Shown: positions 13,426-64,000 of the stretch, in pieces
Layout: each line of letters begins with the position of its first letter
Position numbering within the stretch: the stretch's first letter is position 1
Assembly (NCBI GenBank): GCA_028821265.1
Contig: JAPPGU010000002.1
Location: 904 to 64,903 of the forward strand
Reading direction: 5' to 3'
Source of the DNA: a bacterium
Lineage (GTDB): Bacteria > Actinomycetota > Acidimicrobiia > Spongiisociales > Spongiisociaceae
DNA length: 64,000 nucleotides
Position numbers and translations under genes: made by a program
The notes under the pieces: model-generated
Seen by the model: the letters and a program-made list of their open reading frames with translations, nothing else
What the model was told of the DNA's origin: nothing
Database searches by the model: none

Positions 13426-13568
13426 GGTATGCCCGATCTCGGGCATGACTGACCCGACCGCCATGATCGGGAGCCGGTCGAGATACCGGTAATAAGACGT
13501 ATCGGCGTGTGGCGAGCGAAGAGTGGGGGCTCCCGGCGGTGCCCTGGACTCTCATCGAAAGGAGTGCG

Positions 13569-16500
13569 ATGATGGCGGGACGGGGAGATGGACTTCGGAT
13601 GCAGCGCCTGTTCACGACCGAAGGCCGCGACCCGTACGAGGGAATCGCCTGGACCCGCCGCGAGTCACGGATCGTCAATCCGGACGGCTCCGTGGTCTTC
13701 GAGATGGATGACGCCGAGGTTCCCACCACCTGGTCGCAGGTGGCCACCGACATCATCGTCTCGAAGTACTTCCGCAAGGCCGGTGTGCCCCGGATGGACG
13801 CTGATGGCGACCCGATGCTGGATTCCGACGGCAATCCGGTGCTGGGGTCGGAGCGCTCTGCCAGGGATGTCTTCAACCGGCTTGCCGAGACCTGGCGGCA
13901 CTGGGGTGAGGGTTACGGCTACTTCGGCAGCGCCGCCGAAGCCCAGACCTTCGAGGACGAGATCAAGTACATGCTCGCCAACCAGATGGCGGCTCCCAAC
14001 AGCCCGCAGTGGTTCAACACCGGCTTGTCGCATAAGTACGGCATCACGGGTACGCCGCAAGGGTTCTGGTACGTAGACGAGGAGACCGGCGAGGTACTCC
14101 CCTCCCCCGACGCCTACTCCAGGCCGGCTCCCCATGCCTGCTTCATCCAGTCGGTGGCCGACGACCTCGTCAACGAGGGCGGGATCATGGACCTGTGGGT
14201 CCGGGAAGCCCGTCTCTTCAAGATGGGATCCGGCACCGGCTCCAACTTCTCCAACCTCCGGGCCGAGGGCGAGCCGCTGGCGGGCGGAGGGAAGAGCTCG
14301 GGGCTCATGTCGTTCCTCAAGATCGGAGACCGGGCGGCGGGTGCGATCAAGTCCGGCGGCACCACCCGGCGGGCCGCCAAGATGGTCATCCTCGACACCG
14401 ATCACCCCGACATCGAGGAGTTCATCGCCTGGAAGCGCGACGAGGAAATGAAAGCCCGCCTCCTGATCGAGCACGGCGGGTTCCAGGCCGACTTCAACGG
14501 TGAGGCCTACATGACCGTGTCGGGCCAGAACTCCAACAACTCGGTACGGGTTGACGACCGCTTCATCAAGGCCGTCGCCGACGATGGGGATTGGGAACTG
14601 GTCAACCGGGTGGAGGGTGACGTCAGCAAGACGGTACGCGCCAGAGACCTGTGGGAGCAGATCGCGGACGCCGCCTGGGCCTGTGCCGATCCGGGCGTCC
14701 AGTACCACACCTCCATCAACGAGTGGCACACGTGCCCGGCGGACGGTGAGATCCGGGCGTCCAACCCCTGTTCGGAATACATGTTCCTGGACGACACGGC
14801 TTGCAACCTGGCCAGCATCAACCTCGGCGCCTTCCTCGATGACGCAACCGGCCGGTTCGACACCGCCGGTTACCTCCACGCCATCCGGCTGTGGACGATC
14901 GTCCTGGAGATCTCGGTGACGATGGCGCACTTCCCGTCCAAGGCCATCGCCCAGGGCTCCTATGACTTCCGCACCCTCGGCCTCGGTTACGCCAACCTCG
15001 GCAGCCTCCTGATGCGCTCGGGGATCCCCTACGACTCGGACGAGGGCCGGGCGATCGCCGGCGCGCTGACCGCCATCCTCACCGGTGAGGCCTACGCCAC
15101 CTCCGCCGACATGGCCAAGATGCGGGGCCCCTTCCCCGGGTTCGAGAAGAACCGCGCACACATGTTGCGGGTGATGCGGAACCACCGTCGGGCCGCCTAC
15201 GACGAGAGGGGCTTCGAGGGTGTCGGCACCACGGTCAGCACCATCGACCCGGCATACTGCCCTGCCGAGCTGCTGGACGCGGCCCGGCAGGCCTGGGACC
15301 GTGCCCTGGAGATGGGAGAACAGCACGGTTACCGCAACGCTCAGGCAAGCGTGCTCGCTCCGACCGGATGCCTGGTCGGTGGATCCCTCATCCCGACCGA
15401 GCGAGGACTGGTCCGGCTCCGGTCGCTCGGCGACCCCGAAGGCCCGAGGTGGCAGGAACTGGGCATCTCGGTAGCAACTGACGAGGGACCCCGCACCGCG
15501 ACCCGTTTCTACGTCAACGGGGCAGAACCCGTGGTGACCGTGGACACGGAGCGCGGATACCGCGTCCAGGGAACTCCCACCCACCGCATCAAAGTCGTCG
15601 ACCCGCAGACCGGTGACTGGGTATGGAAACGCTTCGGAGACGTGGAGGCCGGCGATCTCGTACCCCTGCAGATGAACCAGTTGGTCGGAGGTCCCCGCCG
15701 GGTGACCCTCCCGCCCTTGGGAGAGATGTACTGGACCGGTGACTGGACCACCACGGCGCCGAGGACCATGAGCCCGGAACTGGCCGAGTTCGTCGGGTAC
15801 TTCATGGGGGACGGTTCCCTCCACGCCAAAGGTCTGAGGTTGTGCGTCACGGCTGAAGACTTCGACGTGGTGGAACGTCTTCGAATGCTCGGGAAGCGGC
15901 TCTTCAACCTAGAAGCCCACGTCGGCGAAAGGGTCGGCTACGCCGAGGTCGCGTTCCACTCTGTCCCGCTGACCATGTGGTGGGAAGCCTGCGGATTCGC
16001 CAAGATCGCGCCCTCCGAAGGCCATGCCGGCAAGGGCTGGCTGCCTCACATCCCGGACGCGGTACTCGCTTCCAACTGCCCGGAAACCTATCGCGCCTTC
16101 ATCAGGGGCCTGTTCGAAGCCGATGGAACCGTCACGGCAGGCTATCCGCATTGGTCCACGACCTCGATGGACTTCAGCCGCGATGTCCAGTCGCTGCTGC
16201 TGGCGATCGGTTACCCGACAACCCGCAAGATGGATCGGACCGGTTGGAGTGATGCTCCCCTCGCCGTGCTGCGCATCCTCAACCTCTCCTACGCCACCGG
16301 GTTTGCCGAAGAGATCGGTTTCATGAGCGGCCGCAAGCAAGGTGCCCTGGCCTCGACCACCATCCCGCAGTCGGCCCGCTGTGACCACATTCCGGTGCCC
16401 CGCTCCCTCATCGACCGGCTCGTGCCCGAGAACGGCCGCTTGCGGCGCATCATGCTGGCATCGCAGGCCAGGATCGGCATGGTGTCACGCCGATCGGCCC

Positions 16501-18269
16501 TGGAACTCCTCGAACGCACCGATGACCGTGAACTGGCCCGGCTGCTCGACCACTACTACGACCGGGTCGGCAGCGCGGAACTGGGCGAGGAGCAGTGGAC
16601 CTACGACCTGTCCGTCCCCGACAACGTCACCTACGTGGCCAACGGCTTCGTGTCGCACAACACCATCGGGTTGGTGATGGATTGCGACACCACCGGGGTG
16701 GAGCCCGACTTCGCCCTGGTCAAGTTCAAGAAGCTGGCCGGCGGGGGCTACTTCAAGATCGCCAACCAGTCCATCGCCCCGTCGCTGCGGCGGCTCGGCT
16801 ATGACAAGCACCAGATCCTCGACATCCTGGCCTACGTGGTAGGCACCTCATCGCTCGAGAACGCTCCGCACATCAACCACCGGAGCCTGGCGGCGAAGGG
16901 CTTCACGGCCGAGGACCTGGCCAGGATCGGGAAGGCCCTTCCCGGCGCATTCGAACTGGAGAACGCCTTCAACGCCTTCACGCTGGGCGCCGACACCTTG
17001 GAACGGCTCGGCTTCACCGAGGAGGAGTACGGAACCTTCGAGTTCAGGCTGCTGCCGGCGCTCGGCTTCAGCAGGGAACAGATACGTGCCGCCAACGACT
17101 TCATCTGCGGCCGCCAGACCATCGAGGGAGCACCGCACCTGCGTGCCGAACACCTGGCGGTGTTCGACTGCGCCAACCGCAACGGCAAGTACGGAGAGCG
17201 GTTCATCCACCACACGGGCCACATCAAGATGATGGCCGCCGCCCAGCCGTTCATCTCGGGGGCCATCTCCAAGACGATCAACATGCCCAACGAGGTCACC
17301 GTCGAGGATGTGGCGGATGCCTACATGATGTCCTGGGATTTGGGCGTCAAGGCAGTGGCCCTCTACCGCGACGGCTCCAAGGCCTCGCAGCCGCTGTCCG
17401 CCTCCTCGGACGACGGGGTGTCGGAGGAGGAGAGCGAGGAAGTCACCGAAGCGCTGCAGGCCGAGGCCGCCCTGGCGTGGGGAGTCTGGCCCAACGGCAC
17501 CTCACCCACCCAGGCCTACGCCCAGCAACCACGTCCCCGCTTCCTGCTACCGGCCCGCCGGACGGGGTGGACCCAGGAGGCTCGGGTCGGTGGCCACAAG
17601 GTGTTCCTCCGCACCGGGGAGTACGACGACGGAACGCTCGGTGAGATATTCATCGACCTGGCGAAGGAGGGCGCCACGCTCCGGGGTGTGCTGGCCAGCT
17701 TTGCCATAGCGGTTAGCAAGGGCCTCCAGTACGGCGTGCCGCTGGAGGAGTACGTGGACACGTTCGTGTACCAGACCTTCGAGCCCCGCGGCATCGTGGA
17801 GAAGCATCCCAACATCAAGATGGCCAATTCGATCGTGGACTACGTGTTCCGGGCGCTCGGGGTCGAGTACCTGCTTCGGGACGAGCTCGCCCAGGTCCCC
17901 CCGGACCGGTCGAGCAGCGACCTGCCCGAGCCCCCGAAGGGAATCGCCACCGAGGCCGGCCGCCAGATGGAGCTGTCGGAGGCGGTCAAGGAACAGGACA
18001 TCGAGGCGCAGGCCACCGCCGCGGCGTTCGCGGACTCCGATCAGCCCGGCCCCGTCCAGCAGCCGCTCAGCTTGGTGCCGGTGGGTACCGGCAACGGATC
18101 GGGCGTGGCAGTCGGGCTGGCTGACGAAACCGCCCTCGCGAGTGCGGGCCCGATGATCGGAGGCCTGATGGGAGACGCCCCGATGTGCTCCTCATGCGGC
18201 CACATGACCATCCGTAACGGCGCCTGCTACGTCTGCCTGACCTGCGGAGACACCACCGGCTGCAGTTAG
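13569..18269 (+). CDS. nrdJ: class II (adenosylcobalamin-dependent) ribonucleotide reductase NrdJ, interrupted by an intein
   Basis: Family motifs are present ([59 protein letters not shown]) plus a C-terminal CxxC...CxxC tail. An RBS GAAAGGAG precedes the ATG ATG at 13569. Confidence 0.9.
   Translation: [1566 protein letters not shown]
15369..16661 (+). mobile_element. 431-aa intein with a LAGLIDADG homing-endonuclease domain
   Basis: It begins CLVGGSLIP directly after extein APTG. It has block B GTPTHRI and two LAGLIDADG motifs ([26 protein letters not shown]). It ends VSHN followed by extein Thr (TIGLVMDCD). Confidence 0.85.
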
Positions 18270-47056: not shown

Positions 47057-48196
47057 ATGTTCGAATGGCTTGGTATCGGCCACCTCGTCGAGCTTTCCGG
47101 GACGGAAGCCGTCTGGGGGTACTTGACCCCGCTGGCGGCATTCATCGGGTTCTTCGTGTTACAGCTCGTGGTGCCGGGACGCCGCGTCCCCGGCTACGTC
47201 ATCGATCCCGAGACCGGCGAGCCTCGAAACTACCGGCTGAACGGTCTCCTGGTCTTCATAGTCGTGGTGATCCTGTGGTACTTCGAACTGACCGGGATGC
47301 CCCAGGACTGGTTCTACCGGTCCACCCTCTATGCCGTGGCCGGCGGAACGGTGGTGACGCTGATCCTCTCCATCATCGCGGTGTACAGCCAGCCACCGGG
47401 TGAGGTGAAGAACCCGTTACTGGCCTTGTGGATCGGACGGGCCCAAGAGTTGTCCTTCTTCAACCAGCGCATCGACATCAAGATGTACTTCTATGTGGTG
47501 GGCGGGGCGATGTTGGTGCTCAACGGCTGGTCCGCGGTGGCTTACCACTACGACCGCTTCGGCGAGGACGCCAACCCCGGTGTTGTTCTGTACACCGCGT
47601 TCTTCACATGGTATATCGTGGATTACTTCATATTCGAGCGCGTCCAGTTGTATACATACGATCTTATCCATGAGCGGATGGGATTCAAGATGTTCTGGGG
47701 CGGGCTCCTGATCTACGGTTGGATGTTCACCATCCCGCTGTGGGGGATGGCCGTCCACCCGGACCCCGGATTCTCCGGACCGGGCAGGTATGTCTGGCTG
47801 ATCGGGGCGTCGGTGAGCTTCCTCTTCGGGTGGGGCATGTCCCGCGGCGCCGCCATGCAGAAGTACACCTTCAAGCGCTGGCCCGACCGCAAGTTCCTCG
47901 GCCTCATCGAGCCCGAGTACATCGAGGCCGGGGACCGCAAGCTCCTGGTCAGCGGTTTCTGGGGCCTGTCCCGCCACATGAACTACGGGGGTGAGGGGTT
48001 CATCTCGCTGGGGATGGCCCTGGCGTTCGGCCACTTCACCAACCTGTGGGCCTGGACCTACTTCATCTTCGTGGTCATCATGTTCACCACTCGTGAACGC
48101 TACGACAACAAGTTCTGTGAGGAGAAGTACGGCCCCGAGAAGTGGGCCGAGTACAAGGCAAGGGTGAAGTACCGGATCTACCCCTGGATCTACTGA
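47057..48196 (+). CDS. ERG4/ERG24-family sterol-reductase-like membrane protein
   Basis: Polytopic. C-terminal GFWGLSRHMNYGGEG ... RERYDNKFCEEKYGPEKWAEYKARVKYRIYPWIY matches the family signature. Confidence 0.75.
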   Translation: MFEWLGIGHLVELSGTEAVWGYLTPLAAFIGFFVLQLVVPGRRVPGYVIDPETGEPRNYRLNGLLVFIVVVILWYFELTGMPQDWFYRSTLYAVAGGTVVTLILSIIAVYSQPPGEVKNPLLALWIGRAQELSFFNQRIDIKMYFYVVGGAMLVLNGWSAVAYHYDRFGEDANPGVVLYTAFFTWYIVDYFIFERVQLYTYDLIHERMGFKMFWGGLLIYGWMFTIPLWGMAVHPDPGFSGPGRYVWLIGASVSFLFGWGMSRGAAMQKYTFKRWPDRKFLGLIEPEYIEAGDRKLLVSGFWGLSRHMNYGGEGFISLGMALAFGHFTNLWAWTYFIFVVIMFTTRERYDNKFCEEKYGPEKWAEYKARVKYRIYPWIY

Positions 48197-48211: not shown

Positions 48212-48532
48212 TTAGGTAGCGGGCGCGACCACCTCGAACGACAGCAACTCCGAGGCGACACCGACCGGCCGGCTGTCGGAGCCCTCGTTCGATGTCTTGT
48301 GGCCCCGCCCGAACCCCCGACTGCTGACCCACCGCTGGAAGTCCTCCTCCGACCTCCACCTGGTGTACACGAAGTAGCGGGTCTCGCCATCCACCGGCCT
48401 CAGCAGCTCGAATCCTTCGAAGCCCTCCACCCCGTCCACTGCACGAGCCCGCGCCGCGAAGCGCGCCTCCAGCTCCGCACCCCTTCCATCCGGCACGGTG
48501 ATGGCGTTGATCTTGACGACACTCACAGCCAA
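48212..48532 (-). CDS. ABM-fold monooxygenase, MhuD/IsdG-like haem-degrading type
   Basis: SVVKINAITVPDGRGAELEARFAARARAVDGVEGFEGFELLRPVDGETRYFVYTRWRSEEDFQRW closely follows the MhuD pattern as I recall it. Confidence 0.7.
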   Translation of the reverse strand: MAVSVVKINAITVPDGRGAELEARFAARARAVDGVEGFEGFELLRPVDGETRYFVYTRWRSEEDFQRWVSSRGFGRGHKTSNEGSDSRPVGVASELLSFEVVAPAT

Positions 48533-48941: not shown

Positions 48942-50180
48942 CTACAGCCATGGTTGGGAAGGTTCAGGCTGGGGGATCGGGTCGGGAGTCGGGGGCTCGT
49001 GGAAGCGGTGCAGGTAGACGGCGGCTTCCGACCGGGTGACAGGTTGGTCGGGATGGAAGGGATCGGGAGGCGACCACCAGACGATCCCTCGACCGGCCGC
49101 CCAGTCCACGGCCTCTTCGTACCAGGCACCGCCAGCCACGTCTGGGAACGGCGGCGGTTCCGTGATCAACTCCCTCTCGGGATAGAGATCCTTGGGGGTC
49201 GGTTCCCCTAGGGACCCTGTTTCCGAAACCGCAGCGAGCCGATGCAGGAGGACGATGGCTTCCGCGCGGGTGATCCGCCCGGCAGGACCCACGTATCGAA
49301 CCGTCCGCCCCGGCGCGATCCCATGCTGGGCCATCCAGTCCCTGGCCTTCTCGTAGTCCGTGCGCGGGTTGGGATCGTCGAGCGGGCTGGGAGGCACAGT
49401 GTTAGACCCGGTGGCGTACGACCACAGCAACGTCGCGAAGTCCCTCCAACGCATGGGCTCGTCAGGCCCGTAGAGGTCATGCGTCAGGCCGGCGGCGATC
49501 CCCCGGTCGCTCATCCACCGCACGGCTCCGGCGTAGAAGGCATTGGGGGGCACGTCGTTGAACCAGTCGTGCAAGCAGGGCCGGTCGTGGTGACGGGTCG
49601 CCTCGCTGGTCAGCGCCGGCCAGCGACTGCACGAGGGATCCCACTGCCAGGGTGGCACGCAGGTGACGACCCGGCAACGGATCGGCCCGACACAGGTGTC
49701 CTGGCTGCACTGGCCGTAGCGGAACTGGACGCAGTCGACTTTCCTTGTGTCGCACCCGTCCGGGCACCGGCACCAGGCGGCGGTCGCCGAACGCGGGCAG
49801 AGGCCTCCCGGCCAGCACCGGCGAGTCGGCAGGCACGCGACGTTGCAGTCGATGTAGTAGCGGGGTCGTGGCTTGTCATAGGAGCAGAACGAAGAGTTGT
49901 TGACCTTCCACCAGCCACCCACCACCGTCCCGGGCGGGCACGTGTTCTCGCCCGTCAGCCTGCAGCAGAACTCCGTCCATCCGTCGCAGCACGCCGACCC
50001 GGAGGAGCACCGCAGCCCCAGGCATGTGATGATGGCGGCCTCCGCGGCGATGGGTCGGATGAGGTAGGCAGGGGCGAAGGCGATGGCTGTCGCGGACATC
50101 ACCACCGATCGAAGGAACCCGCGCCGCGACGTGTGGCGGTCCACCAGGCTCGATACCCTCATGATGAGTTTGCGACTCAT
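48942..50180 (-). CDS. Tat-secreted cysteine-rich (about 22 Cys) MauA-like domain fused to three SLH repeats
   Basis: It has a twin-arginine signal (TSRRGFLRS...AAEA) and a Cys-rich region with CPPGT...GGWW...C...YYIDC...AAWC, reminiscent of the methylamine dehydrogenase light chain. Three F.DV...W...GI..G...TR.EA SLH-like repeats follow. Confidence 0.65.
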   Translation of the reverse strand: MSRKLIMRVSSLVDRHTSRRGFLRSVVMSATAIAFAPAYLIRPIAAEAAIITCLGLRCSSGSACCDGWTEFCCRLTGENTCPPGTVVGGWWKVNNSSFCSYDKPRPRYYIDCNVACLPTRRCWPGGLCPRSATAAWCRCPDGCDTRKVDCVQFRYGQCSQDTCVGPIRCRVVTCVPPWQWDPSCSRWPALTSEATRHHDRPCLHDWFNDVPPNAFYAGAVRWMSDRGIAAGLTHDLYGPDEPMRWRDFATLLWSYATGSNTVPPSPLDDPNPRTDYEKARDWMAQHGIAPGRTVRYVGPAGRITRAEAIVLLHRLAAVSETGSLGEPTPKDLYPERELITEPPPFPDVAGGAWYEEAVDWAAGRGIVWWSPPDPFHPDQPVTRSEAAVYLHRFHEPPTPDPIPQPEPSQPWL

Positions 50181-50203
50181 TGCTGCTGCCGGTGGCCGGT
50201 GGC

Positions 50204-50782
50204 TTACCGCCGGAGCCCGGCGGCTTCGATCCGGAACGTCTCCGGAGTCCTACCTCCCGCCGATCTGGCCTGGAGCCATTCCGGCACCGCTGTGAAGCTC
50301 ACGAGGACCATCCCGGCCAGCACGCACACGGCGAGGACCAGCGCAACGCGGCCAACCGGTTGATCTGCCGCGTTTCCGACCCAGACCACTGGCGAACCAC
50401 CCCCGCCTGCCGCCAGCGCGCACACGGCTGCGAAGAAGAGGTTGCCGACCACATGTATCCCCGATGGTGGGGAATCCAGTTGCCCGAAGCATCCGCAAGA
50501 GGAGAGACCCCTGTTGAGCGCGAGCAGCGAAACCAGCGCGAACAGCGAGTAGACACCGGCCGCGACGAGCGCCGGCCCCGGCCCGCCGGCCGCAAGCGCG
50601 GCCACTCCGAGTACCAACTCCGCGCCACCGGCCGCACGGGCGAACCACACCCGGGCGGGGAAACCGACGGCTCCCATCAGGTCGGCCGCCGGACGGGGGA
50701 ATGCCAGCTTGGCCACCCCGGCGAAGATGAGCAACAGCGAGCCGGCCGCGTAGAGCGCCATCGTGAGGTCTGGGAAGGTCAT
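50204..50782 (-). CDS. MauE/DoxX-family redox-associated membrane protein
   Basis: Four or five hydrophobic helices and the CGCFG motif. It ends 23 nt upstream of the Cys-rich gene. Confidence 0.65.
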   Translation of the reverse strand: MTFPDLTMALYAAGSLLLIFAGVAKLAFPRPAADLMGAVGFPARVWFARAAGGAELVLGVAALAAGGPGPALVAAGVYSLFALVSLLALNRGLSSCGCFGQLDSPPSGIHVVGNLFFAAVCALAAGGGGSPVVWVGNAADQPVGRVALVLAVCVLAGMVLVSFTAVPEWLQARSAGGRTPETFRIEAAGLRR

Positions 50783-50872: not shown

Positions 50873-52423
50873 ATGGCAGACTTGATGCGCAAGTTTGCCC
50901 CCCAACGAGGTCGCGCTTTGAGCGGAGCATGGATGGATCTGCGGCGCCGGGGACCGGACCCGCTGGTGGCCGCGGCGCTCTCCGCGATCTGGCCCGGTCT
51001 GGGCCATTTCGGCCACAGAACCCGCCGTGCCCTGCTGTTCGCCAACGGGACCCTGATGGCCTACGTCTTCGCGCTCGGCTACGTGGTGGCGCGCGGCACG
51101 AGGACCCTGCTCCTCTGGACCGTGAACGTCTCCTCGCTCCGGATCGTGATGGTGGGGAGCCTGCTCCTACTCGCCTTTCGCTCCGCGGTTGCGGTGGACG
51201 CGTACAGAACTGCGGACCGCCGCTACTGGCGGTGGCGCCACAAGCCGCGGCGGCGGGTCGGGACAGCGATCACGCTCACCCTGGTGGCCGCGCTCATCGC
51301 CGCTCCCCACGTGGTGGTCATCCGACTCGCCTCGGTGCAGCTGGCCCTGCTGTCGGACGTGTTCGTCGCCACCAACACGCTGACCGCGGCTCCCACCCCG
51401 CTTCCCACCACCTCCCCCACGACCTCGCTGCCGGAGGCCGGCGAGGCCGACCCATCGGGACCCATCGTGCCGCTCACACAGGCGACGACCCCGGCCCCTA
51501 CCACATCCACCACGGCCCGGGCCCCGGCCCCGGCCGCGCAACCACAACTGACATGGGACGGCGCGGACCGCCTCACCATTGCTCTGCTGGGAAGCGACGC
51601 CGGGTTCGACCGGGTCGGGGTGAGAACCGACACGATCATCGTGGTCTCGATCGATGTGGCCACCGGCGATGCGGCGGCGTTCAGCGTGCCGCGCAACTGG
51701 CGTCACGTCACCTTCCCGGACGGAACCGCTGCCGCGGAGCTATGGCCGGACGGGTATCCGGAGATCGTCAACGAGATCTACGGCCTCGGGCTGAGACAGC
51801 CCGAAGCCTTCCCCCAGGTCGATGATCCGGCGGGACACGCCATCAAGTCCGCGCTCGCCCAGCTGACCGGCCTGCCCATCCAGTACTACGTGCTGCTCGA
51901 CATGGTGGGTTTCGTCAAGGTCATCGACCTGTTCGGCGGCATCGACCTGTACGTGAGCGAAACGATCGACGAGCGGATCAAGCCCATCGTGGCGGACGGC
52001 CCGCCCGTCTTCATCACCACCGAGCCCGGACTCCACCACTTCGACGGCATGACCACCCTCGGCTACGTGCGTGCCCGGACCGGCACCACAGACTGGCACC
52101 GGATGACCCGCCAACGATGCGTGGTCGAGGCCCTGCTCGACCAGGTGCCGCGCATGGAGCTGGTGTACCGGTATGCGGACCTCACCGACATCATCGCCAG
52201 CCATGTCAGCACCGACATCCCGATCGGTCGCCTCAGCGACCTCATGGGCATCGCGGACCGCCTCGACACGTCGAGGATCGTCACCGTCAACTTCATCCCT
52301 CCCGAGTTCCAGCCCGGCGATGCGCCCATCGCCCAGGTACGGGCCGCCGTCTCCCAGGCCCTGGAAGGCCGCGCCAACACCTCGAACGCGCTACTCGCCG
52401 ATAGGTGCCGGACAACGCAGTAA
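50873..52423 (+). CDS. LytR-CpsA-Psr (LCP) family cell-wall polymer ligase
   Basis: N-terminal membrane helices, a Pro/Thr-rich linker, and an LCP core (LLGSDAG...RTDTIIVVSID, YYVLLDMVGFVKVIDLFGGIDL, LGYVRAR). Confidence 0.85.
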   Translation: MADLMRKFAPQRGRALSGAWMDLRRRGPDPLVAAALSAIWPGLGHFGHRTRRALLFANGTLMAYVFALGYVVARGTRTLLLWTVNVSSLRIVMVGSLLLLAFRSAVAVDAYRTADRRYWRWRHKPRRRVGTAITLTLVAALIAAPHVVVIRLASVQLALLSDVFVATNTLTAAPTPLPTTSPTTSLPEAGEADPSGPIVPLTQATTPAPTTSTTARAPAPAAQPQLTWDGADRLTIALLGSDAGFDRVGVRTDTIIVVSIDVATGDAAAFSVPRNWRHVTFPDGTAAAELWPDGYPEIVNEIYGLGLRQPEAFPQVDDPAGHAIKSALAQLTGLPIQYYVLLDMVGFVKVIDLFGGIDLYVSETIDERIKPIVADGPPVFITTEPGLHHFDGMTTLGYVRARTGTTDWHRMTRQRCVVEALLDQVPRMELVYRYADLTDIIASHVSTDIPIGRLSDLMGIADRLDTSRIVTVNFIPPEFQPGDAPIAQVRAAVSQALEGRANTSNALLADRCRTTQ

Positions 52424-52484: not shown

Positions 52485-53243
52485 GTGGCCCTCGCTCTCG
52501 TCCTGCTCAGTTGCGCCGTGGCGGTCCTCGCCCTACTGGTGTTCGGCCTGCTGAGGTCGCACGCCGAGATAATCCGAGCTCTGCACCGCGCGGGAATCCC
52601 TCTCGAGGAAAGCGGCGGGCATGCCGGACACCCCGGCGCGCCCGTGGAGTTGCGTTCCGAGCCGGACGGGGCCGCGCACGACATCGTCGGCGTTTCTCCC
52701 GGTGGGAGCCCCACCAAGGTCAGCGTCACCGGCGTACGCGGTATGACGCTTCTGGCGTTTCTCTCGTCGGGTTGCCGGACGTGCGAGACCTTCTGGACGG
52801 CGTTCGCGGAGCCCGGCCTCGATCTCCCCGATGCGAGCACCCGGCTCGTCATCGTCGGTCAGGACCCGCCCCTCGAGTAGGAGACCGCGTTCGCCGGCCT
52901 GGCGCCTCCGGGTGTCAAGGCGGTGCTGTCCAGCGCGGCGTGGCAGGACTATGACGTTCCGGGATCGCCGTACTTCGCGCTGGTCGACGGTACGCACAAC
53001 CGGATGGTCGGCTCAGGCACCGCCGGTAACTGGGACCAGATGCGGAACATGCTCGGGACGGCCCTGGGCGACTACCTTCGTGAGATCGATCCGGAACGCG
53101 GCTCGACCTCGGGCCGGAACCGGGAAAGGCGCGCCGATCAGGCTCTGGCGGCGGCCGGCATCGGCCGGGACCATCCGAGCGTCAACCCGGAACCAAGCAC
53201 CAGCGATGGGGACACTCCTCGCAACCCATCCGCCGAACAGTGA
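52485..53243 (+). pseudogene. membrane-anchored MauD/TlpA-like thioredoxin-fold gene interrupted by one in-frame TAG (52878-52880)
   Basis: Track ORFs 52485..52880 and 52923..53243 are in the same frame. The CxxC motif (SSGCRTCETFW) lies before the stop, and the rest of the fold (SAAWQDYDVPGSPYFALVDG...G) lies after it. Confidence 0.55.
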
Positions 53244-53320
53244 TCACTTCATTCGCCGTAGGCGTCGCCGCCGCGGTCGTCGCCGGATTCCGCTCGACCT
53301 GGTCGCCCTGAGGCCTTTCG

Positions 53321-53905
53321 ATGCTCACGAGCATCAGCCCGCTCGGCGAGCGGGCCCGGGGCAACAGCTGGTCACTCACCGTGACATGGCTCGTCATGGG
53401 AACGCTGGTCGGAGGAGCGTCTCTCGGCGCCGTCCTGGGCGCCGTCGGGCGGGCCCTCCCGGTCACCCTCGACGAGAGCTGGCGCCTGTCCGCACTGGTC
53501 CTGGCCGGATTAGCGGCTGCGGCATGGGATCTGAAGGTGCGCCGGTTCCCCATCCGCCGCCAGGTCAACGAGGACTGGCTCACTGCCTTCCGTCCCTGGG
53601 TTTATGGCTGGGGTTACGGGCTTCAACTAGGTGCTGCGGTCGTCACGGCCGTCAACACGGCGCTCGTGCCCATGTTCATGCTGGCCGCCCTGCTGACGCG
53701 TGACCCGGTGAGCGGGCTACTGGTGGGAGCGGCCTTCGGCGCAGCGCGGGGGCTAACCGTGACGCTGAACCGCCGGGTCCGCAACGCCGCGGATCTCGCC
53801 CGGCTAAGTCGCCGGCTCGACACCCTCGCGCCCAGAGCCCGGCGCCTCGGCGCTCTCGCAGCGGCCCTGCTGGCGGCTGTGTCCGCGGTCGCCCTAGTGA
53901 CCTGA
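53321..53905 (+). CDS. polytopic membrane protein, CcdA/DsbD-like topology (may extend to 53240 through an in-frame TGA)
   Basis: Five hydrophobic helices from the ATG at 53321. An upstream 23-codon in-frame segment supplies a sixth helix ending ...AGFRSTWSP-TGA. Confidence 0.6.
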   Translation: MLTSISPLGERARGNSWSLTVTWLVMGTLVGGASLGAVLGAVGRALPVTLDESWRLSALVLAGLAAAAWDLKVRRFPIRRQVNEDWLTAFRPWVYGWGYGLQLGAAVVTAVNTALVPMFMLAALLTRDPVSGLLVGAAFGAARGLTVTLNRRVRNAADLARLSRRLDTLAPRARRLGALAAALLAAVSAVALVT

Positions 53906-53909
53906 CAGC

Positions 53910-54383
53910 ATGCACCGCCTCTCCGCTTACGGGATAGGACTGGACGTGCCGACCGGCTGGGAGGCCGAACTGTCCTTGCAGGACGACGCCGAGAAGATCG
54001 AGATCGACACTGCACCACCCGGCCACGGCCTGGTCGTCCTGCATGCGGCCAACTTCTGGCTGCCGAACGAGCGTGACGACTACGGCTCGGAGGCGCTGGA
54101 GGCCATGGGTCCGGCGGGCGTCTTCATCGCGCTCGTGGAGTTCGATCGCGTCTCGGTCGGGTCCCTGCTGTTCGAGCACCACGGCATCCCGGCCGATCTG
54201 CAACCCGACGACTTCGATCCCAACGCACTCCGGCGGCCCATGCGAGAACAGGCCGGCCTCCAACGATTCTTCCACTCGGCCGGTCGGGCCTTCTGCCTCC
54301 ACGCCGCCATCGGCTCCCACAACAACCGAAGAACGCTGGCCCGCGACGTGAACAGCATCCTCTCAAACCTCACCATCGAATAG
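53910..54383 (+). CDS. hypothetical protein
   Basis: 157-aa ORF starting 5 nt after the preceding gene. No motif recognised. Confidence 0.45.
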   Translation: MHRLSAYGIGLDVPTGWEAELSLQDDAEKIEIDTAPPGHGLVVLHAANFWLPNERDDYGSEALEAMGPAGVFIALVEFDRVSVGSLLFEHHGIPADLQPDDFDPNALRRPMREQAGLQRFFHSAGRAFCLHAAIGSHNNRRTLARDVNSILSNLTIE

Positions 54384-54431: not shown

Positions 54432-55028
54432 CTATGAGATGGCCATGTCTCCTTCGGTTCCGGTGACGGTCCAGCCGTCCTCTGCTTTCGTTACCCGATA
54501 GGTGAGCCAGATCCCGCATGTGCCGCCACACCACAAGTTGACCCCGACCGTCGCGCCGGCGCCATCGAACTCGACCGGTGCCAGCGTGACGATCGCGCTT
54601 CCGGGGATGACTGGCATCAGGACCTCCTGTTGGATGAAGTCGCTCCGATTGCTGACAAACGTCACCGGCGAGAGGTCCTCAATGGCCGCCGCGATTGCGC
54701 TGCGCTGCTCGTCGGTGAGAGCGTCACCAGGCGAGCCTTCCGTCATGTAGTCCGCGGCGTCGAACACCACACGGTCTAGGACAAGAACTTCGGTGAACCG
54801 GTAGTCGGGCCCGAACGTGTTGTCGAACTCTACGATCTGCCGTGTCACCGTCGCGTAGATGGCCACCGATGCCTTAGCGCGCTCTTCTTCGGAATATGAG
54901 CCGTCTCCGCAGGCAACTGTGCTCACGACCATCAGCACGCCCATAGCGAGGCCGAGGGATCGCAAGTTTGTGCGCGCCGCACGGCGCCCTTGCGCGTTCG
55001 TCGATTCGCCCCTGCCAGCCCGGAACAT
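54432..55028 (-). CDS. hypothetical lipoprotein
   Basis: Signal peptide with lipobox VSTVAC. No recognisable domain. Confidence 0.55.
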   Translation of the reverse strand: MFRAGRGESTNAQGRRAARTNLRSLGLAMGVLMVVSTVACGDGSYSEEERAKASVAIYATVTRQIVEFDNTFGPDYRFTEVLVLDRVVFDAADYMTEGSPGDALTDEQRSAIAAAIEDLSPVTFVSNRSDFIQQEVLMPVIPGSAIVTLAPVEFDGAGATVGVNLWCGGTCGIWLTYRVTKAEDGWTVTGTEGDMAIS

Positions 55029-55366
55029 GATCTACCTCCCAACGCCCCTCACTGTGTGAGCGCCGTTCACCGCTGTTCGCAACAGCTCGTTCCCTTTAGA
55101 CGCCGGATCGACCGGGTTTGGTTCCACCCCCTGAGCCAATCGTTCGCGGCGGGGCCCAACGGTCATGGTCGCCGCCTAAACGTCTGGTAAGCAGGGCTAT
55201 TCACCGGAACTGGACGGCTGGACGAATACGGTGGTGATCTTCACGAGCGACACGGCGACACGCTGAGCGTCGCATCCGGCCCATTTGCGGATCTTCCCGA
55301 TGAGATCGGACAGCCTGAGGCGCCTCACCGTCGGCTAGTTTGGACGATCGTCAGCGGGGGTTCTGG

Positions 55367-57385
55367 ATGAGCGACGAGACGATTAACAACCACGAGGCGT
55401 TTGTCTGGTCGGTGGCCGACCTGTTGCGGGGTGTGTACAAACAGTCGGAGTACGGGCGGGTGATCCTTCCGCTCACGGTGCTCCGTCGGCTGGATTGCGT
55501 GCTGGAACCCACCAAGGACAAGGTGCTGGAGCGGGCGGCCAAGCTTCCGACTGACCTGGAGAACCGGGCGCCGATACTGATGCACGCGGCTGGGGAGTCG
55601 TTCTACAACACGTCGAAGCACACGTTCAAGACGTTGCTGGCCGATCCCGACAACGTGGCCCCGAACCTGCGCAACTACATCGCCGGGTTCTCCGAGTCGG
55701 CCCGGGACATCATCGACAAGTTCAACTTCGACACCCAGATCGACCGGTTGGACCAGCACAACCTGCTGTACCTGGTGGTGTCCCGCTTCGCCGACCTCGA
55801 TATGCGCCCGGAGGTGGTGTCGAACCTGGAGATGGGTTACATCTACGAGGAGTTGATCCGCCGCTTCTCGGAGTTGTCCAACGAGACGGCGGGTGAGCAC
55901 TTCACCCCCCGCGAGGTGATCCGCCTCATGGTGAACCTGCTCCTCGCGGACGATGACCAGTTGCTGACGGCACCGGGGATCGTCAAGACCATGCTGGACC
56001 CGGCCTGCGGCACGGGCGGAATGCTGTCCGTGTCGGAGGAGTACCTGCGCAATCTCAACCCCCAGGGCCGCCTTCACGTCTACGGCCAGGAGGTGAACGC
56101 TGAGACCTATGCCACGTGCCGGTCGGACATGCTGATCAAGGGCCTGGACGCGTCGCGGATCCGGTTCGGGAACAGCTTTGACAACGACCAACACCCCAGC
56201 CGCCGCTTCGACTACCTGCTGGCCAATCCCCCGTTCGGTGTGGAGTGGAAGATGGTCGCCAACCACATCAGAGGCGAGCACAAGACGAAGGGCTTCGCGG
56301 GTCGGTTCGGCGCCGGCCTGCCACGGATCAACGACGGCAGCTTCCTGTTCCTCCAGCACATGATCTCCAAGATGAAACGCCCCGAAGAAGGCGGCGCCCG
56401 CCTGGCGATCGTGTTCAACGGCTCCCCACTCTTCACGGGAGCGGCCGGGTCGGGCGAGTCCGAGATCCGGCGGTGGATCATCGAGAACGACTGGCTCGAA
56501 GCCGTGGTCGCCCTCCCCGACCAGCTGTTCTACAACACCGGGATCTCCACCTACTTCTGGGTAGTCACCAACCGCAAGTCCCCCAAGCGCCGCGGCAAGG
56601 TCCAGTTGATCGACGCCCGCGAGTCTTGGACCAAGATGCGCAAGAGCCTCGGCAACAAACGCAAGCAGATCAGCGACGACCAGATTGACGAGCTCACCCG
56701 TCTCTACGGCGCCTTCGAGGAAGGCCCCCGCTCCAAGATCTTCCCCAACGAGAGCTTCGGCTTTCTCCGGATCACCGTCGAACGCCCCCTCCGCCTCCGC
56801 TGGGAGATCACCCAAGACACCCTCGCCGCCGTCGCCGCCGACAAGAAAGTCACCAAACTCCTGTCCACGAGGAAGGACCTTCTGCTGGAGAAGCTCCGAC
56901 CCACTCACGGCGCCACCTACCCGACCGAAAAGGATGCGAAGGCAGCCGTCCGCGACGCGCTCGTGTCAGTCATCGGAGAGAAACCCACTCCCGTGGTCAA
57001 CGCCATCGCCACCGCACTCGCGGTGCGAGACCCTCAGGCGCCGGTCATCACCGACCGCAAGGGCAACCCCAAACCCGACCCCACCCTCCGCGACTACGAA
57101 AACGTCCCCCTACCCACCAAACGCGTCACCCACGAAACCGACACCACCAGACGGCTCAACACCACCGAGTACCAGACCGCCATCAACGACTACCTCGAAA
57201 CCGACGTCCACCCCTACGTCCCCGACGCCTGGCACGACCCCACCAAGACCAAGATCGGCTACGAAATCCCCCTCACCCGCCACTTCTACACCTACACCCC
57301 GCCCCGCCCCCTCCAAGACATCGACAAGGAAATCAAGACCCTCGAATCCGAGATCCAAGCCCTCCTCGCCGAGGTGACGAATTGA
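55367..57385 (+). CDS. hsdM: type I restriction-modification system methyltransferase subunit
   Basis: HsdM N-terminal pattern (FVWSVADLLRG...YGRVILPLTVLRRLD), SAM motif DPACGTGGML, and catalytic LLANPPFGVEW. Confidence 0.9.
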   Translation: MSDETINNHEAFVWSVADLLRGVYKQSEYGRVILPLTVLRRLDCVLEPTKDKVLERAAKLPTDLENRAPILMHAAGESFYNTSKHTFKTLLADPDNVAPNLRNYIAGFSESARDIIDKFNFDTQIDRLDQHNLLYLVVSRFADLDMRPEVVSNLEMGYIYEELIRRFSELSNETAGEHFTPREVIRLMVNLLLADDDQLLTAPGIVKTMLDPACGTGGMLSVSEEYLRNLNPQGRLHVYGQEVNAETYATCRSDMLIKGLDASRIRFGNSFDNDQHPSRRFDYLLANPPFGVEWKMVANHIRGEHKTKGFAGRFGAGLPRINDGSFLFLQHMISKMKRPEEGGARLAIVFNGSPLFTGAAGSGESEIRRWIIENDWLEAVVALPDQLFYNTGISTYFWVVTNRKSPKRRGKVQLIDARESWTKMRKSLGNKRKQISDDQIDELTRLYGAFEEGPRSKIFPNESFGFLRITVERPLRLRWEITQDTLAAVAADKKVTKLLSTRKDLLLEKLRPTHGATYPTEKDAKAAVRDALVSVIGEKPTPVVNAIATALAVRDPQAPVITDRKGNPKPDPTLRDYENVPLPTKRVTHETDTTRRLNTTEYQTAINDYLETDVHPYVPDAWHDPTKTKIGYEIPLTRHFYTYTPPRPLQDIDKEIKTLESEIQALLAEVTN

Positions 57386-59504: not shown

Positions 59505-59596
59505 GAACACTGCTACGCTGTAGTGCTGAACACTGCTGTGCTACTACTCCGATAACTGCTGTGCTATCGGCCTGAACACTGCTACGCTGTGGCTAG
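59505..59596. repeat. four tandem 23-bp direct repeats (iteron-like) ending on the start codon of the ATPase gene
   Basis: The units start at 59505, 59528, 59551 and 59574. The core is GAACACTGCT(A/G)(C/T)GCT, and the first and fourth units are identical over 17 nt. Confidence 0.8.
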
Positions 59597-60849
59597 TGAA
59601 GTACATCCCCCGCCTTGTGGACGCACAACTCGCGCGAACTCGTAGCACCCATCCTGTCGTGCTGGTGACAGGCGCCAGGGGCGTGGGTAAGACCACGACG
59701 GCCCTTCGGTCGGTGAGGTCTAGCGCGTTTCTCGACGACTCGGCGACCCGCACCGTTTTCCACGACAATCCCGAGGCCGCCCTCGCCCAGTATCGGGAAC
59801 CGCTCCTGGTGGACGAGTGGCAGTTGGCCCCCGAGGTCGTGCGAGCGATCAAACGTACCGTCGACCGGGACCGAAGGCCCGGACGGTTTGTCCTCACCGG
59901 CTCACCCGACCCGCGGAGCCGGTCCGAGTTCCAGGCGCTGACCGGGCGGGCGGCGGTAGTGCGGCTCAACCCGATGACCGTGAGGGAACTGGGCGGGCGG
60001 GTTGCGGATCCGAGCCACGCCCCCATGGTCTCCGGGTTGCTGTCGGGAAACCCACCCGAAGCCCCGCCGGAGCACACTCCCGATATCTTCGGATACCTGG
60101 ACATGGCCGCGGTCGGCGGCTTCCCCGAGTGCGCCCCCGAAGGCTCCCCAGACTATTCCCAACAGTGGAGTCGGGACTGCCTGAGCGTTCTGCTGCGGCG
60201 AGATCTGCCCCTGTTCGGAACGCGGCGCTCAGCGTCCCTTTTCCGCAGATACCTCACCGCCGCCGCCCTTCACACCGCGCGCTCGCCCGAGGACGGAAGC
60301 CTGCGAAACGCCGCCCGCGTGAACCCCGGGACCCACCGGGACTACCGGCACATCCTGCTCGACATGGATATGACCGTCGAGGTGCCCGCTTTCGTCGGCG
60401 AGGATCTTCCCGCTCTCGCCAAGTCCCCGAAGATGCTGTTCAGCGACACCGGGCTGCTGATGGCGGCGATGAACGTGCCCCTGCCTCGCCTCAAGCTGAA
60501 CGGTGACCTCTACGGCCGGGTCGTCGAGACGTTCGCTCTCAACCAGATCCGCTCCGAGCTAGAGGCCCTCGGCATGCGGGACGCACTGAGCCACCTCCGC
60601 ACCCACAAAGGCGCCCGCGAAATCGACGCCGTCATCGAGACCGAGGACGGCGGCATCGTGGCAATCGAAGTCAAATCGGCCAACCGGCACCGGCCCGGCG
60701 ACATCCGCCACATCGAGTGGCTATCCGAGAAGGTAGGCGACAGGTTCAGGTTGGGGCTGGTACTAACGACCGGTCGTCACATCAGCAACATCCGAAGCGA
60801 AAAGACCGACCGAATCTGGGCCGCGCCGATCAGCATCCTCTGGCACTAG
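59596..60849 (+). CDS. AAA-type ATPase with a DUF4143-like C-terminal domain (COG1373-like)
   Basis: Walker A VTGARGVGKTT, Walker B LLVDEWQ, and a C-terminal REIDAVIE...IVAIEVK nuclease-fold-like motif. Confidence 0.75.
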   Translation: MKYIPRLVDAQLARTRSTHPVVLVTGARGVGKTTTALRSVRSSAFLDDSATRTVFHDNPEAALAQYREPLLVDEWQLAPEVVRAIKRTVDRDRRPGRFVLTGSPDPRSRSEFQALTGRAAVVRLNPMTVRELGGRVADPSHAPMVSGLLSGNPPEAPPEHTPDIFGYLDMAAVGGFPECAPEGSPDYSQQWSRDCLSVLLRRDLPLFGTRRSASLFRRYLTAAALHTARSPEDGSLRNAARVNPGTHRDYRHILLDMDMTVEVPAFVGEDLPALAKSPKMLFSDTGLLMAAMNVPLPRLKLNGDLYGRVVETFALNQIRSELEALGMRDALSHLRTHKGAREIDAVIETEDGGIVAIEVKSANRHRPGDIRHIEWLSEKVGDRFRLGLVLTTGRHISNIRSEKTDRIWAAPISILWH

Positions 60850-62066: not shown

Positions 62067-64000
62067 ATGAGTTCGACTAACGAGGCGGCGTTCGAGGCTC
62101 ACATCGCCGGCTGGCTGGTCAACCATGGCGGCTACCGGCGAGTGAAGACCACCGGCGACGGCTACGAGTCCGACTTCGACGGTATTGCCGGCGTGGACAC
62201 GGCCGACCTGTTCGGGTTCATCAAAGCGACCCAGGCGGACCGGTGGGACAAGTTGGTGGACTCGGGCTACGGCGGCGATCCGGATGTCGCGAAGGCCAAG
62301 TTCGTGCAGCGCTTGGCTGCCCAGCTTGACAAGCGGGGCACGGTGGATGTGCTGCGGCGGGGCGTTACCGATTACAACGTTCCGGTCCGCCTGGCCTACT
62401 TCAAGCCGGCTCACGGGCTCACTCCGGAGTTGGTGGAGCGGTACGAGGCGAACATCCTGTCGGTCGCTCGGCAGTTGCGCTACCAGCCGGGGAGCAACAA
62501 GACCATCGACCTGGGCCTGTTCGTGAACGGGATCCCGGTGGCGACAGCCGAGTTGAAGAACCCGCTGACCGGCCAGAGCGTCGAGCATGCGATGTTGCAG
62601 TACCGCAAGGACCGCGACCCCAAGAACCGGACACTCAAGCGAGTGGGGATGGTCCACTTCGCGGTAGATCCGTACTCGGTGGCCATGACCACACATCTGG
62701 CGGGCAAGTGGACTCGGTTCCTGCCCTTCAACCAGGGCGACGATCTGGGAGCGGGGAATCCCTCCAACCCGGACGGGCATCGGACTGCCTACCTGTGGGA
62801 GCGGGTGTGGTCCCGGGACGCGTGGATGGACATCCTGGGCCGTTTCATCCATGTCGAGAAACCGTCCAAGGGCTCCAAGGCCCGTCCGACCGTGATCTTC
62901 CCCCGGTTCCACCAGTGGGACGCGGTGCGCCGCCTGGAGGCCGACGCCCAGGTCGCCGGGGCGGGTAGTAACTATCTGGTGCAGCATTCGGCGGGGTCGG
63001 GCAAGTCCAACTCGATCGCCTGGCTGGCTCACCGGTTCTCGTCTCTGCATAGTGCCGAGGATCAGGAGGTGTTCGACAAGGTGGTGGTGATCACCGACCG
63101 CATCATCCTCGATCGCCAACTCCAGGATGTGATCAGCCAGTTCGAGCACGCCATCGGCGTCGTGCAGTCGATCGACAAGGACGCCGGCCAGCTGGCCGAA
63201 GCGTTGAAGGGTGAGCAGGCCCGGATCATCGTCACCACCCTCCAGAAGTTCCCGTTCGTGTTCGATCACGTCTTGTCGTTGCCGGAGCGCACCTACGCGG
63301 TGATCGTGGACGAGGCCCATTCATCGCAGACCGGTGAGGCAGCCAAGGACCTCCGCCGGGCTCTGGGAACCGCCGAGGCGGATATCGATGACGAAGCCAC
63401 CGACGCTGAGACGCTGCTGGCCGACGCGGTGGCGGCGCGGGGTCGGCAGCCGAACCTGTCGTTCTTCGCGTTCACGGCCACTCCCAAGGGCCGGACGCTG
63501 GAGTTGTTCGGCGAGAAGGGCCCGGACGGGAAGCACCAGCCGTTCCACCTGTACCCGATGCGCCAGGCCATCGAGGAGCGCTTCATCGAGGACGTTCTGG
63601 CCAACTACCTCACTTACAACCGCTACTACCACCTCGAGAAGACCCTCCTGGAGGATCCCAAGTACGAGACAGCGAAGGCCCGGGCGGCCCTAGCCCGCTT
63701 CGTCACCCTCCACCCCGAGAATCTGGGGCAGAGGGCCGACATCGTGGTCGAGCACTTCCTGGACAGGATTGCGCACCGGATGGTGGGGAGAGCAAAGGCC
63801 ATGGTGGTCTGCTCCTCCCGGCCGCACGCGGTGGGGATGTGGAGGGCGCTCCGCAAGCACATCAACAACAACGGCCACGATCTAGGCGTCTTAGTGGCCT
63901 TCTCCGGGGAGGTCGAGGGACTGACCGAGACCAAGGCCAACGGGTTTCCGGAATCGGAGACAGCCACCCGATTCGACGGGGACGAGTACCGGATCATGGT
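62067..64000 (+). CDS. hsdR: type I restriction enzyme R subunit, 3' end outside the window
   Basis: The frame is open from the ATG at 62067 to the window edge, so it is absent from the ORF track. It has an HsdR N-terminal nuclease region (IDLGLFVNGIPVATAELKN), Walker A HSAGSGKSNS, and the DEAH box VIVDEAHSSQ. Confidence 0.85.
   Translation, partial: MSSTNEAAFEAHIAGWLVNHGGYRRVKTTGDGYESDFDGIAGVDTADLFGFIKATQADRWDKLVDSGYGGDPDVAKAKFVQRLAAQLDKRGTVDVLRRGVTDYNVPVRLAYFKPAHGLTPELVERYEANILSVARQLRYQPGSNKTIDLGLFVNGIPVATAELKNPLTGQSVEHAMLQYRKDRDPKNRTLKRVGMVHFAVDPYSVAMTTHLAGKWTRFLPFNQGDDLGAGNPSNPDGHRTAYLWERVWSRDAWMDILGRFIHVEKPSKGSKARPTVIFPRFHQWDAVRRLEADAQVAGAGSNYLVQHSAGSGKSNSIAWLAHRFSSLHSAEDQEVFDKVVVITDRIILDRQLQDVISQFEHAIGVVQSIDKDAGQLAEALKGEQARIIVTTLQKFPFVFDHVLSLPERTYAVIVDEAHSSQTGEAAKDLRRALGTAEADIDDEATDAETLLADAVAARGRQPNLSFFAFTATPKGRTLELFGEKGPDGKHQPFHLYPMRQAIEERFIEDVLANYLTYNRYYHLEKTLLEDPKYETAKARAALARFVTLHPENLGQRADIVVEHFLDRIAHRMVGRAKAMVVCSSRPHAVGMWRALRKHINNNGHDLGVLVAFSGEVEGLTETKANGFPESETATRFDGDEYRIM

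Follow-up and report, generated by a model that had tools for sequence, protein, structure and literature searches.

The 64-kb window analyzed here, the whole stretch of 64,000 nucleotides taken from contig JAPPGU010000002.1 of an Acidimicrobiia bacterium, contains a five-gene cassette in which relatives of mauE, mauD and mauF, together with a fifth gene here called P155, accompany the gene for a cysteine-rich protein with C-terminal SLH repeats. We lean, if only slightly, towards the explanation that the cassette is an oxidative-folding module of MauE/MauD type, dedicated to a disulfide-knotted surface domain that derives from MauA, the light chain of methylamine dehydrogenase (MADH), but is without the canonical tryptophan tryptophylquinone (TTQ). 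In methylotrophs, mauF, mauE and mauD mature the small subunit of MADH. An original prediction, made from the letters of the window alone, had drawn attention to a pair formed by the mauE gene and the Cys-rich gene. Both genes are real, but the pair was incomplete in that the MauF homolog and P155 had been missed, and the real unit is the five-gene cassette rather than the two-gene pair. The genes of the cassette, and the gene that separates its two halves in the window, are the following, where ORF stands for open reading frame and HMM for hidden Markov model:

50204..50782, reverse strand: MauE-family membrane protein of 192 aa (Pfam PF07291)
48942..50180, reverse strand: Cys-rich SLH protein of 412 aa, an ORF in four parts (leader, Cys-rich domain, SLH repeats and Pro-rich tail)
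50873..52423, forward strand, divergent: LCP (LytR-CpsA-Psr) glycopolymer transferase (PF03816, 82.5 bits; TIGR00350)
52485..53243, forward strand: MauD-like membrane-anchored thioredoxin with an in-frame TAG (translation, and family HMM against MauD)
53321..53905, forward strand: MauF-like membrane protein of 194 aa (phmmer, HMM and BLASTP against MauF)
53910..54383, forward strand: P155, 157 aa in the window (family HMM), without a described family

The mauE ORF is placed upstream of the Cys-rich ORF on the same strand, with a gap of 23 nucleotides between them. The LCP gene is divergently adjacent and the gene for a thioredoxin with a CxxC motif, which starts at 52485, is located 2.3 kb away, both in agreement with the original prediction.

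To describe the cassette across genomes, we used 85 loci, which were searched with one HMM per cassette gene and of which 80 came from a scan of GTDB that gave 454 species-level matches, mostly in metagenome-assembled genomes (MAGs) of Acidimicrobiia. The Cys-rich gene is present in all 85 loci, the MauE and thioredoxin genes in 79 each, while 73 loci have P155 and 68 the MauF-like gene. On a single strand, the genes usually follow in the order MauE, Cys-rich, thioredoxin, MauF-like and P155, and P155 is almost always the last gene. In two distant homologous loci, the MauE gene overlaps the start of the Cys-rich gene, and three genes alongside have no Pfam family above the cut-off but agree in size with the window ORFs 52485..53243, 53321..53905 and 53910..54383. 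The window and its five nearest relatives (L006-L010) contain a rearranged form, in which the thioredoxin, MauF-like and P155 genes run divergently, with the LCP gene placed between the two halves. The LCP gene adjoins the cassette in 14 loci and is a neighbor, not a core member. Clustering of the flanking ORFs in 80 loci revealed no conserved sixth gene, no propeller and no di-haem protein. The clusters were mostly shadow ORFs, and the real recurring neighbors were LCP, found in 18 loci, and, in 13 loci, a pyridine-nucleotide oxidoreductase-like ORF that was labelled by eye only, without a domain search. As to the co-occurrence of mauE, a Cys-rich gene and SLH repeats, which the original prediction had put forward for a genome survey, mauE accompanies the Cys-rich gene in 79 of the 85 loci, and the Cys-rich domain is joined to SLH repeats, as in the window, in 40 of the 80 species-level loci.

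The heavy chain of MADH is a propeller. A 632-aa secreted beta-propeller protein (Tricorn_N/PD40 and DUF346 repeats; 10541-12439 in L001) is encoded directly after the cassette in one lineage (L001-L003), and a few members of the Cys-rich family carry propeller-type repeats (FG-GAP, tectonin and DUF346) as fusions. The 632-aa gene was considered as a heavy-chain-like member of the cassette and rejected, as the association is not conserved.

The cluster from Methylorubrum served as the canonical mau cluster, and the sources name its proteins MauF (also CcdA), MauE, MauD and MauJ. When the HMMs of the cassette were compared to this cluster, they matched MauF with 48.4 bits, MauD with 33.5 bits and MauE with 28.7 bits, and the Cys-rich HMM matched MauA with 9.6 bits, while no other matches were obtained. 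At the level of sequence, these comparisons and those below show that the MauE, MauD-like and MauF-like proteins are homologs of the mau gene products. The upstream MauE gene that had been predicted is supported by a match to PF07291 with 48.7 bits, where the cut-off is 27, and its homologs reach 60.6 bits in locus L001 and 41.7 bits in locus L004. The MauE protein in the window contains an SCGCFG loop, a lysine in the first transmembrane segment (TM1; AGVAKLA) and a glutamic acid in the second (TM2; GGAELV), all of which are conserved in three loci. MauE proteins substitute for DsbB in E. coli, have an experimentally defined active site with a CXC loop motif followed by F-G as well as a conserved lysine and a conserved glutamic acid close to the predicted quinone site, and are often paired or fused with a thioredoxin-fold protein (bioRxiv 10.64898/2026.03.05.709764, a preprint). 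Since MauE is reported to be a generalist and MauA to be present in only about 10% of the species that contain MauE (bioRxiv 10.64898/2026.03.05.709764), the adjacency of MauE alone is weak evidence for a quinoprotein.

The MauD-like protein contains the CxxC motif in the sequence SGCRTCE. An intact ortholog of the thioredoxin in L006 shows 24% identity to MauD over 179 aa, spanning the membrane anchor, the CxxC motif and the cis-Pro region (BLASTP). The only NCBIfam match of the thioredoxin homologs is TIGR02661 (MauD), with 13.8-14.7 bits against an equivalog cut-off of 188.6 bits. The window gene is split by an in-frame amber codon (TAG) at positions 52878-52880, which the original prediction did not mention, and neither of the two ORF halves matched Pfam or NCBIfam when scanned separately, so that the homology to MauD is visible only with the intact orthologs and the family HMM. 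Four close relatives (L006-L009) instead carry TCG (Ser) here, which is a single C-to-A difference, and the amber codon could represent a pseudogene, a strain variant, or an error in base calling or assembly. The MauD-like proteins (window 53120-53243, L001 8650-9402 and L004 6158-6958) also share a conserved C-terminal tail after the thioredoxin fold, RE-R-D--L-AAGI-PGHPSLYP, which is absent from canonical MauD.

The MauF-like protein was identified in a phmmer search of all window ORFs with Methylorubrum MauF, which found the ORF at 53312..53902 with 41.6 bits (E 3.9e-12). The identity to MauF is 31% over 178 aa, corresponding approximately to residues 91-265 of the 285 residues in MauF (BLASTP), and the protein also has a weak match to DsbD_2. 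P155, whose gene never occurs apart from the cassette, contains neither a signal peptide nor a membrane segment. It has no match in Pfam, NCBIfam or PDB, nor among the proteins of the mau cluster, and its invariant residues include H45, D57, Q118 and N148.

The 412-aa Cys-rich protein can be divided into the following parts:

50040..50180, reverse strand: twin-arginine leader, residues 1-47, with the segment that precedes the twin arginines (the pre-RR segment, LIMRVSSLVDRHT), SRRGFL, a hydrophobic region and an A-x-A site (AEA)
49566..50039, reverse strand: Cys-rich domain, residues 48-205, with 22 Cys (AlphaFold2 model)
48981..49562, reverse strand: three SLH repeats (PF00395), residues ~207-400, then the Pro-rich tail

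The description of this protein in the original prediction holds in most of its details. The twin-arginine translocation (Tat) signal SRRGFL is followed by the hydrophobic region and the AEA site, and the protein is predicted to be exported by Tat. The count of about 22 cysteines is exactly 22, all of which are placed between residues 53 and 202; the strings CPPGTVVGGWW, RYYIDC and AAWC are all found in the protein; and the three SLH repeats are recovered with 58.4 bits by PF00395 and align three ways without gaps. The consensus of the Tat leader in the family is LVxRxxxxLxxRxSRRGFL...AYA, and 3 of 95 members match PF10518.

The Cys-rich domain has no match in Pfam at E<=10, none in NCBIfam and no sequence match in PDB (phmmer and profile search). 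An exhaustive profile search gave a family of 630 cluster representatives (50% identity) at E<=1e-3 and 291 at E<=1e-30, superseding a word-indexed search that gave only 21 relatives and had made the family seem rare. In the source annotation, the family proteins are hypothetical or named after their C-terminal domain. A total of 18 positions are invariant in the alignment (149-163 sequences), namely C72, N79, C81, P82, G89, W90, W91, C99, D111, C112, C143, F153, R154, Y155, G156, C169, R170 and C174. In many members the domain stands alone, as a protein of about 205 aa. The C-terminal modules among 95 members are LGFP (25), FG-GAP_3 (5), CWB2 (4), SLH (4), DUF4214 (3) and ricin (2), and in another two of the 95 the domain is fused to MauE. 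As the C-termini are modular across the family, the domain behaves like an N-terminal head on cell-surface proteins of modular build, and for its function we infer a stable head, either binding or catalytic, at the surface of the cell. Six members (P0026, P0027, P0037, P0044, P0073 and P0090) have long C-terminal regions of 4-5 repeats of about 110 aa each, with the motif GWA-DPD...VHVYVDG...RPDV...HGF...VC-YA, for which there is no Pfam model.

A similarity to MauA is seen in the leader. The spacing of the family leader equals that of the MauA consensus LVExLTRxVAQRTSRRSFL, and an hhalign comparison to the MauA leader profile gave a probability of 97.1% (E 4.8e-11); the pre-RR segment alone gave 88.7% (E 2.5e-6). 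Among twelve control Tat leaders, eleven scored lower (12-23), while NosZ scored higher (33.6), over 22 columns starting at column 16. All twelve align from column 12 of the leader profile or later, whereas MauA covers columns 3-34. In the mature domain, the HMM and hhalign alignments to MauA are not significant, but they are colinear: C64-x-D66-G67 is placed on Cys29-x-x-Asp32-Gly33, CPPGT on CPPGT, W90 on Trp57, C99 on Cys61 and D111-C112 on Asp76-Cys77. The P. denitrificans MauA sequence used matches PDB 1mg2_B (313.6 bits, residues 1-131). An hhalign comparison in global mode produced a meaningless alignment and was set aside. We modeled the mature domain with AlphaFold2 from an alignment of 148 sequences, which gave a predicted local distance difference test (pLDDT) score of 91.7 and a predicted template modeling score (pTM) of 0.86. 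With this model as the Foldseek query, the MADH light chain 1mda_L was the first match out of 350,542 PDB chains, although with an E-value of 0.52 that is not significant, and 2j56_M was the third, with template modeling (TM) scores of 0.32/0.40, likewise not significant. A first model, inferred from 22 sequences with the leader kept, was poor (pLDDT 67), gave Foldseek matches that were noise, and was replaced by the mature-only model. The C-terminal half of the domain has no counterpart in MauA. Taken together, the Cys-rich family probably descends from a MauA-like ancestor, of which the leader and the N-terminal half would have been kept, but it falls outside the MauA family as currently defined.

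Several observations weigh against the explanation that we favor. The original prediction of a MauA-like domain agrees with the leader and with the order of the motifs in the N-terminal half, but the match of the mature domain is not significant. A comparison with the profile of the MADH light chain gave no significant match, and PF02975 was found in 0 of 95 family members. A profile search of PDB with the mature domain gave no match to MauA, and the hhalign comparison of the mature domain to MauA reached a probability of 14% over 13 columns (G-x-N-x-CPPGT). An HMM built from the mature part only gave at most 4.1 bits on 117 MauA sequences, and the TM scores of the MauA matches in Foldseek range from 0.23 to 0.40, at the E-value given above. 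The similarity of the leaders could reflect a common machinery rather than common descent. Furthermore, the MauF-like protein in the window is free of cysteines and lacks the first ~90 residues of MauF, and because of the amber codon in the MauD-like gene the system may be impaired in this genome, unless the base call is wrong. Finally, Tat export of a disulfide-rich protein is, to our knowledge, unusual.

One alternative is that the domain is unrelated to MauA and that a disulfide-rich surface domain has recruited the MauE/MauD/MauF module, with the CPPGT motif and the leader being convergent or imposed by the machinery. We consider this unlikely, although it is the strongest of the competing explanations. 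It would account for a mature domain without a significant match in sequence or fold, and it fits both with MauE as a reported generalist that occurs with MauA in 10% of the species that have it (bioRxiv 10.64898/2026.03.05.709764) and with the mauE and mauD genes in Streptomyces that adjoin other Cys-rich products (PMC7794033). However, several independent weak signals converge on MauA, including the similarity of the pre-RR leader, the motifs in the N-terminal half land on functional residues of MauA with their order kept, and the first Foldseek match is the MADH light chain. MauF, a protein so far tied to mau clusters, is present as well.

In MADH, we take Trp57 to be the quinone-bearing residue, Trp108 to be the second tryptophan in TTQ, and Asp76 and Asp32 to be catalytic. 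The original prediction stated that both TTQ tryptophans are present, but the second of these, W136 in AAWC, is a glycine, serine or threonine in most members, and the family alignment to MauA shows an isoleucine, valine or leucine in the column of Trp108. Since the Trp108 equivalent is thus replaced and the tryptophan in AAWC is not conserved, the family cannot form the canonical TTQ. A further alternative is a wall-displayed enzyme of the TTQ or cysteine tryptophylquinone (CTQ) type without a heavy chain, in which a tryptophan-derived quinone would be formed on W90/W91 by a maker other than MauG. Neither W90 nor W91 varies among 163 sequences, and the alignment puts W90 on the quinone-bearing Trp57, the invariant D111 on the catalytic Asp76 and D66 on Asp32. 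The use of Tat would fit with modification before export, and P155 is conserved and cytoplasmic, with an invariant histidine and aspartic acid. However, the second conserved tryptophan required for TTQ is missing, D66 is replaced by serine or glutamic acid in one quarter of the members, and the even number of cysteines speaks against a Cys-Trp crosslink. As predicted originally, MauB, MauG and amicyanin are absent: phmmer searches with Methylorubrum queries found no homologs in the 64-kb window, and a CxxCH screen of the window ORFs found none with two such motifs. There are also no genes for cupredoxins, flavoproteins or radical-SAM proteins in the cassette or the window. We therefore regard a quinone enzyme as improbable. 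The related idea, that the invariant Trp-Trp pair and the aspartic acids aligned with the catalytic ones of MADH mark a new redox cofactor derived from tryptophan, for which MauG would not be needed and P155 might help before Tat export, is a long shot of the same order. If it were true, marine and sponge-associated Acidimicrobiia would display a light-chain-only quinoprotein on their cell wall.

The pattern of the cysteines is that of disulfides. The number of cysteines in the domain ranges from 16 to 30 and is even in 136 of 163 members, and the variable cysteines come and go as pairs. The correlation is 1.0 for 53/65 and for 137/150, 0.91 and 0.84 for another two pairs, and 0.70-0.71 for 64/139 and 73/202. 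Since the cysteines are gained and lost pairwise and their counts are even, we interpret them as disulfides, of which the window protein should carry 11, as judged from its cysteine content. The same pattern argues against a Tat cargo that binds a metal or an iron-sulfur cluster with the cysteines as ligands. Tat typically carries proteins loaded with a cofactor, and 16-30 cysteines within ~155 residues would be in line with such a cargo. However, the counts are even and change pairwise, a thiol oxidase and a thioredoxin are the partners dedicated to the domain, and neither a ferredoxin-type CxxCxxC motif nor a Pfam match to an Fe-S family was found in the domain, which leaves this explanation with very little probability.

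Least probable of all, to the point of being nearly negligible, is that the product is a secreted bacteriocin or a toxin resembling a peptide synthesized by ribosomes and modified after translation (RiPP), and that the cassette serves its maturation and immunity. In Streptomyces, clusters that combine mauE/mauD with Cys-rich precursors have been proposed as RiPP candidates (PMC7794033), and many members of the family are stand-alone proteins. However, the domain is modeled as a confidently folded unit of 155 aa, it has repeatedly been fused to modules that bind the cell's own wall (SLH, LGFP and CWB2), and it is kept in hundreds of species in a cassette without a transporter or an immunity gene.

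Under the folding-module explanation, the long leader of MauA type would route the precursor to Tat. Outside the membrane, the anchored MauD-like thioredoxin would use its CxxC motif to introduce or shuffle the ~11 disulfides, and MauE would re-oxidize the thioredoxin via its CGC loop, with the electrons presumably passed on to the membrane quinone. The MauF-like protein and the cytoplasmic P155 would assist in the process. P155 may be a chaperone that binds the leader, which is a guess based only on its being soluble and cytoplasmic, as no other member is, in a cassette that centers on a Tat cargo whose pre-RR segment is conserved. In the lineage of the window, the three SLH repeats would hold the mature domain on a wall polymer, while LGFP, CWB2, ricin-type or other repeat modules would take the place of SLH in other lineages. 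The original prediction considered the neighboring LCP gene to be consistent with binding of the SLH repeats to a wall polymer; this fits, but LCP is a neighbor in few loci only, as described above.

The window is 98% identical at the protein level to a contig of one Acidimicrobiia MAG, and its near relatives include Candidatus Spongiisocius. The DNA is rich in guanine and cytosine (GC), with about 63-71% in 2-kb windows. Close to the downstream end of the Cys-rich gene, and outside the conserved cassette, there are genes for a sterol-reductase-like membrane protein of the ERG4/ERG24 family (47057-48196, forward strand) and for a small ABM-fold protein with weak matches to HmuQ/IsdG-like heme-degrading proteins (48212-48532, reverse strand). 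Directly after the cassette, on the opposite strand, is an ORF of 198 aa (54432-55028, reverse strand) with no family match, whose N-terminus is lipoprotein-like in that a hydrophobic stretch is followed by a cysteine (VSTVACGDG). Directly beside the cassette are also type I restriction-modification genes (HsdM, and HsdR, which the window cuts off at its end) and the gene for a DUF4143/AAA_14 ATPase, located at 55340-57385, 59596-60849 and 62067-63998, all on the forward strand. The GC fraction falls to 0.61-0.64 across this segment, which suggests that it is mobile or acquired. Elsewhere in the window, an intein that includes a LAGLIDADG homing-endonuclease domain interrupts a class II (B12-dependent) ribonucleotide reductase of 1586 aa (13509-18269, forward strand).

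The roles of MauF, MauE and MauD for the small subunit of MADH have been a question for about 30 years, and the odd Tat leader of that subunit is another. The cassette represents a second, widespread and independent setting, in which all three helpers and this type of leader serve a different Cys-rich client, without a heavy chain, MauG or amicyanin. It thereby makes testable the idea that MauFED is a portable folding module for extremely disulfide-rich Tat cargo. The domain also seems to be a standard surface component of the Acidimicrobiia, of which few members are in culture and whose envelope is poorly known. Known from earlier work are the mau cluster, the oxidase role of MauE, SLH anchoring, and the mauE and mauD genes beside Cys-rich candidate peptides in Streptomyces (PMC7794033). 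Within the libraries and names searched, the Cys-rich family, the fixed five-gene cassette and the P155 family are new, and so is the finding that MauF and a leader of MauA type occur beyond methylamine metabolism.

The closest known system is the mau cluster of methylotrophs (mauFBEDACJGLMN), in which homologs of MauF, MauE and MauD likewise adjoin a small Cys-rich protein with a long Tat leader. As in MauA, the Cys-rich protein contains CPPGT, a tryptophan at the position of Trp57 and a D-C at that of Asp76-Cys77, albeit in a non-significant alignment. However, the cassette contains no MauB, MauC, MauG, MauJ, MauL, MauM or MauN, its gene order is E, A-like, D, F and P155, of which P155 is an extra gene, and its MauF-like protein is shorter and free of cysteines. 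While MauA has 12 cysteines, the domain in the cassette is larger, contains 16-30, differs from MauA in its C-terminal half and is without the Trp108 equivalent. Unlike the product of the mau system, the cassette product is also predicted to be anchored to the wall, and it occurs in an actinobacterium. In the CGC-F-G loop, the TM1 lysine, the TM2 glutamic acid and the thioredoxin-fold partner, the cassette MauE resembles the DsbB-like MauE proteins (bioRxiv 10.64898/2026.03.05.709764), but it differs from the generalist described there in being fixed beside a single, extremely disulfide-rich client. The decRiPPter clusters in Streptomyces also contain actinobacterial mauE and mauD genes beside a Cys-rich secreted product and no other mau genes, but their products are small peptide precursors with at least 8 cysteines that are proposed RiPPs (PMC7794033), whereas the cassette yields a folded domain of 155 aa that carries wall anchors, and also encodes a MauF-like protein and P155. 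Lastly, the cassette product shares its C-terminal triple SLH and its LCP neighbor with SLH-anchored surface proteins, but differs from the known ones in its N-terminal head, which comes from no described family.

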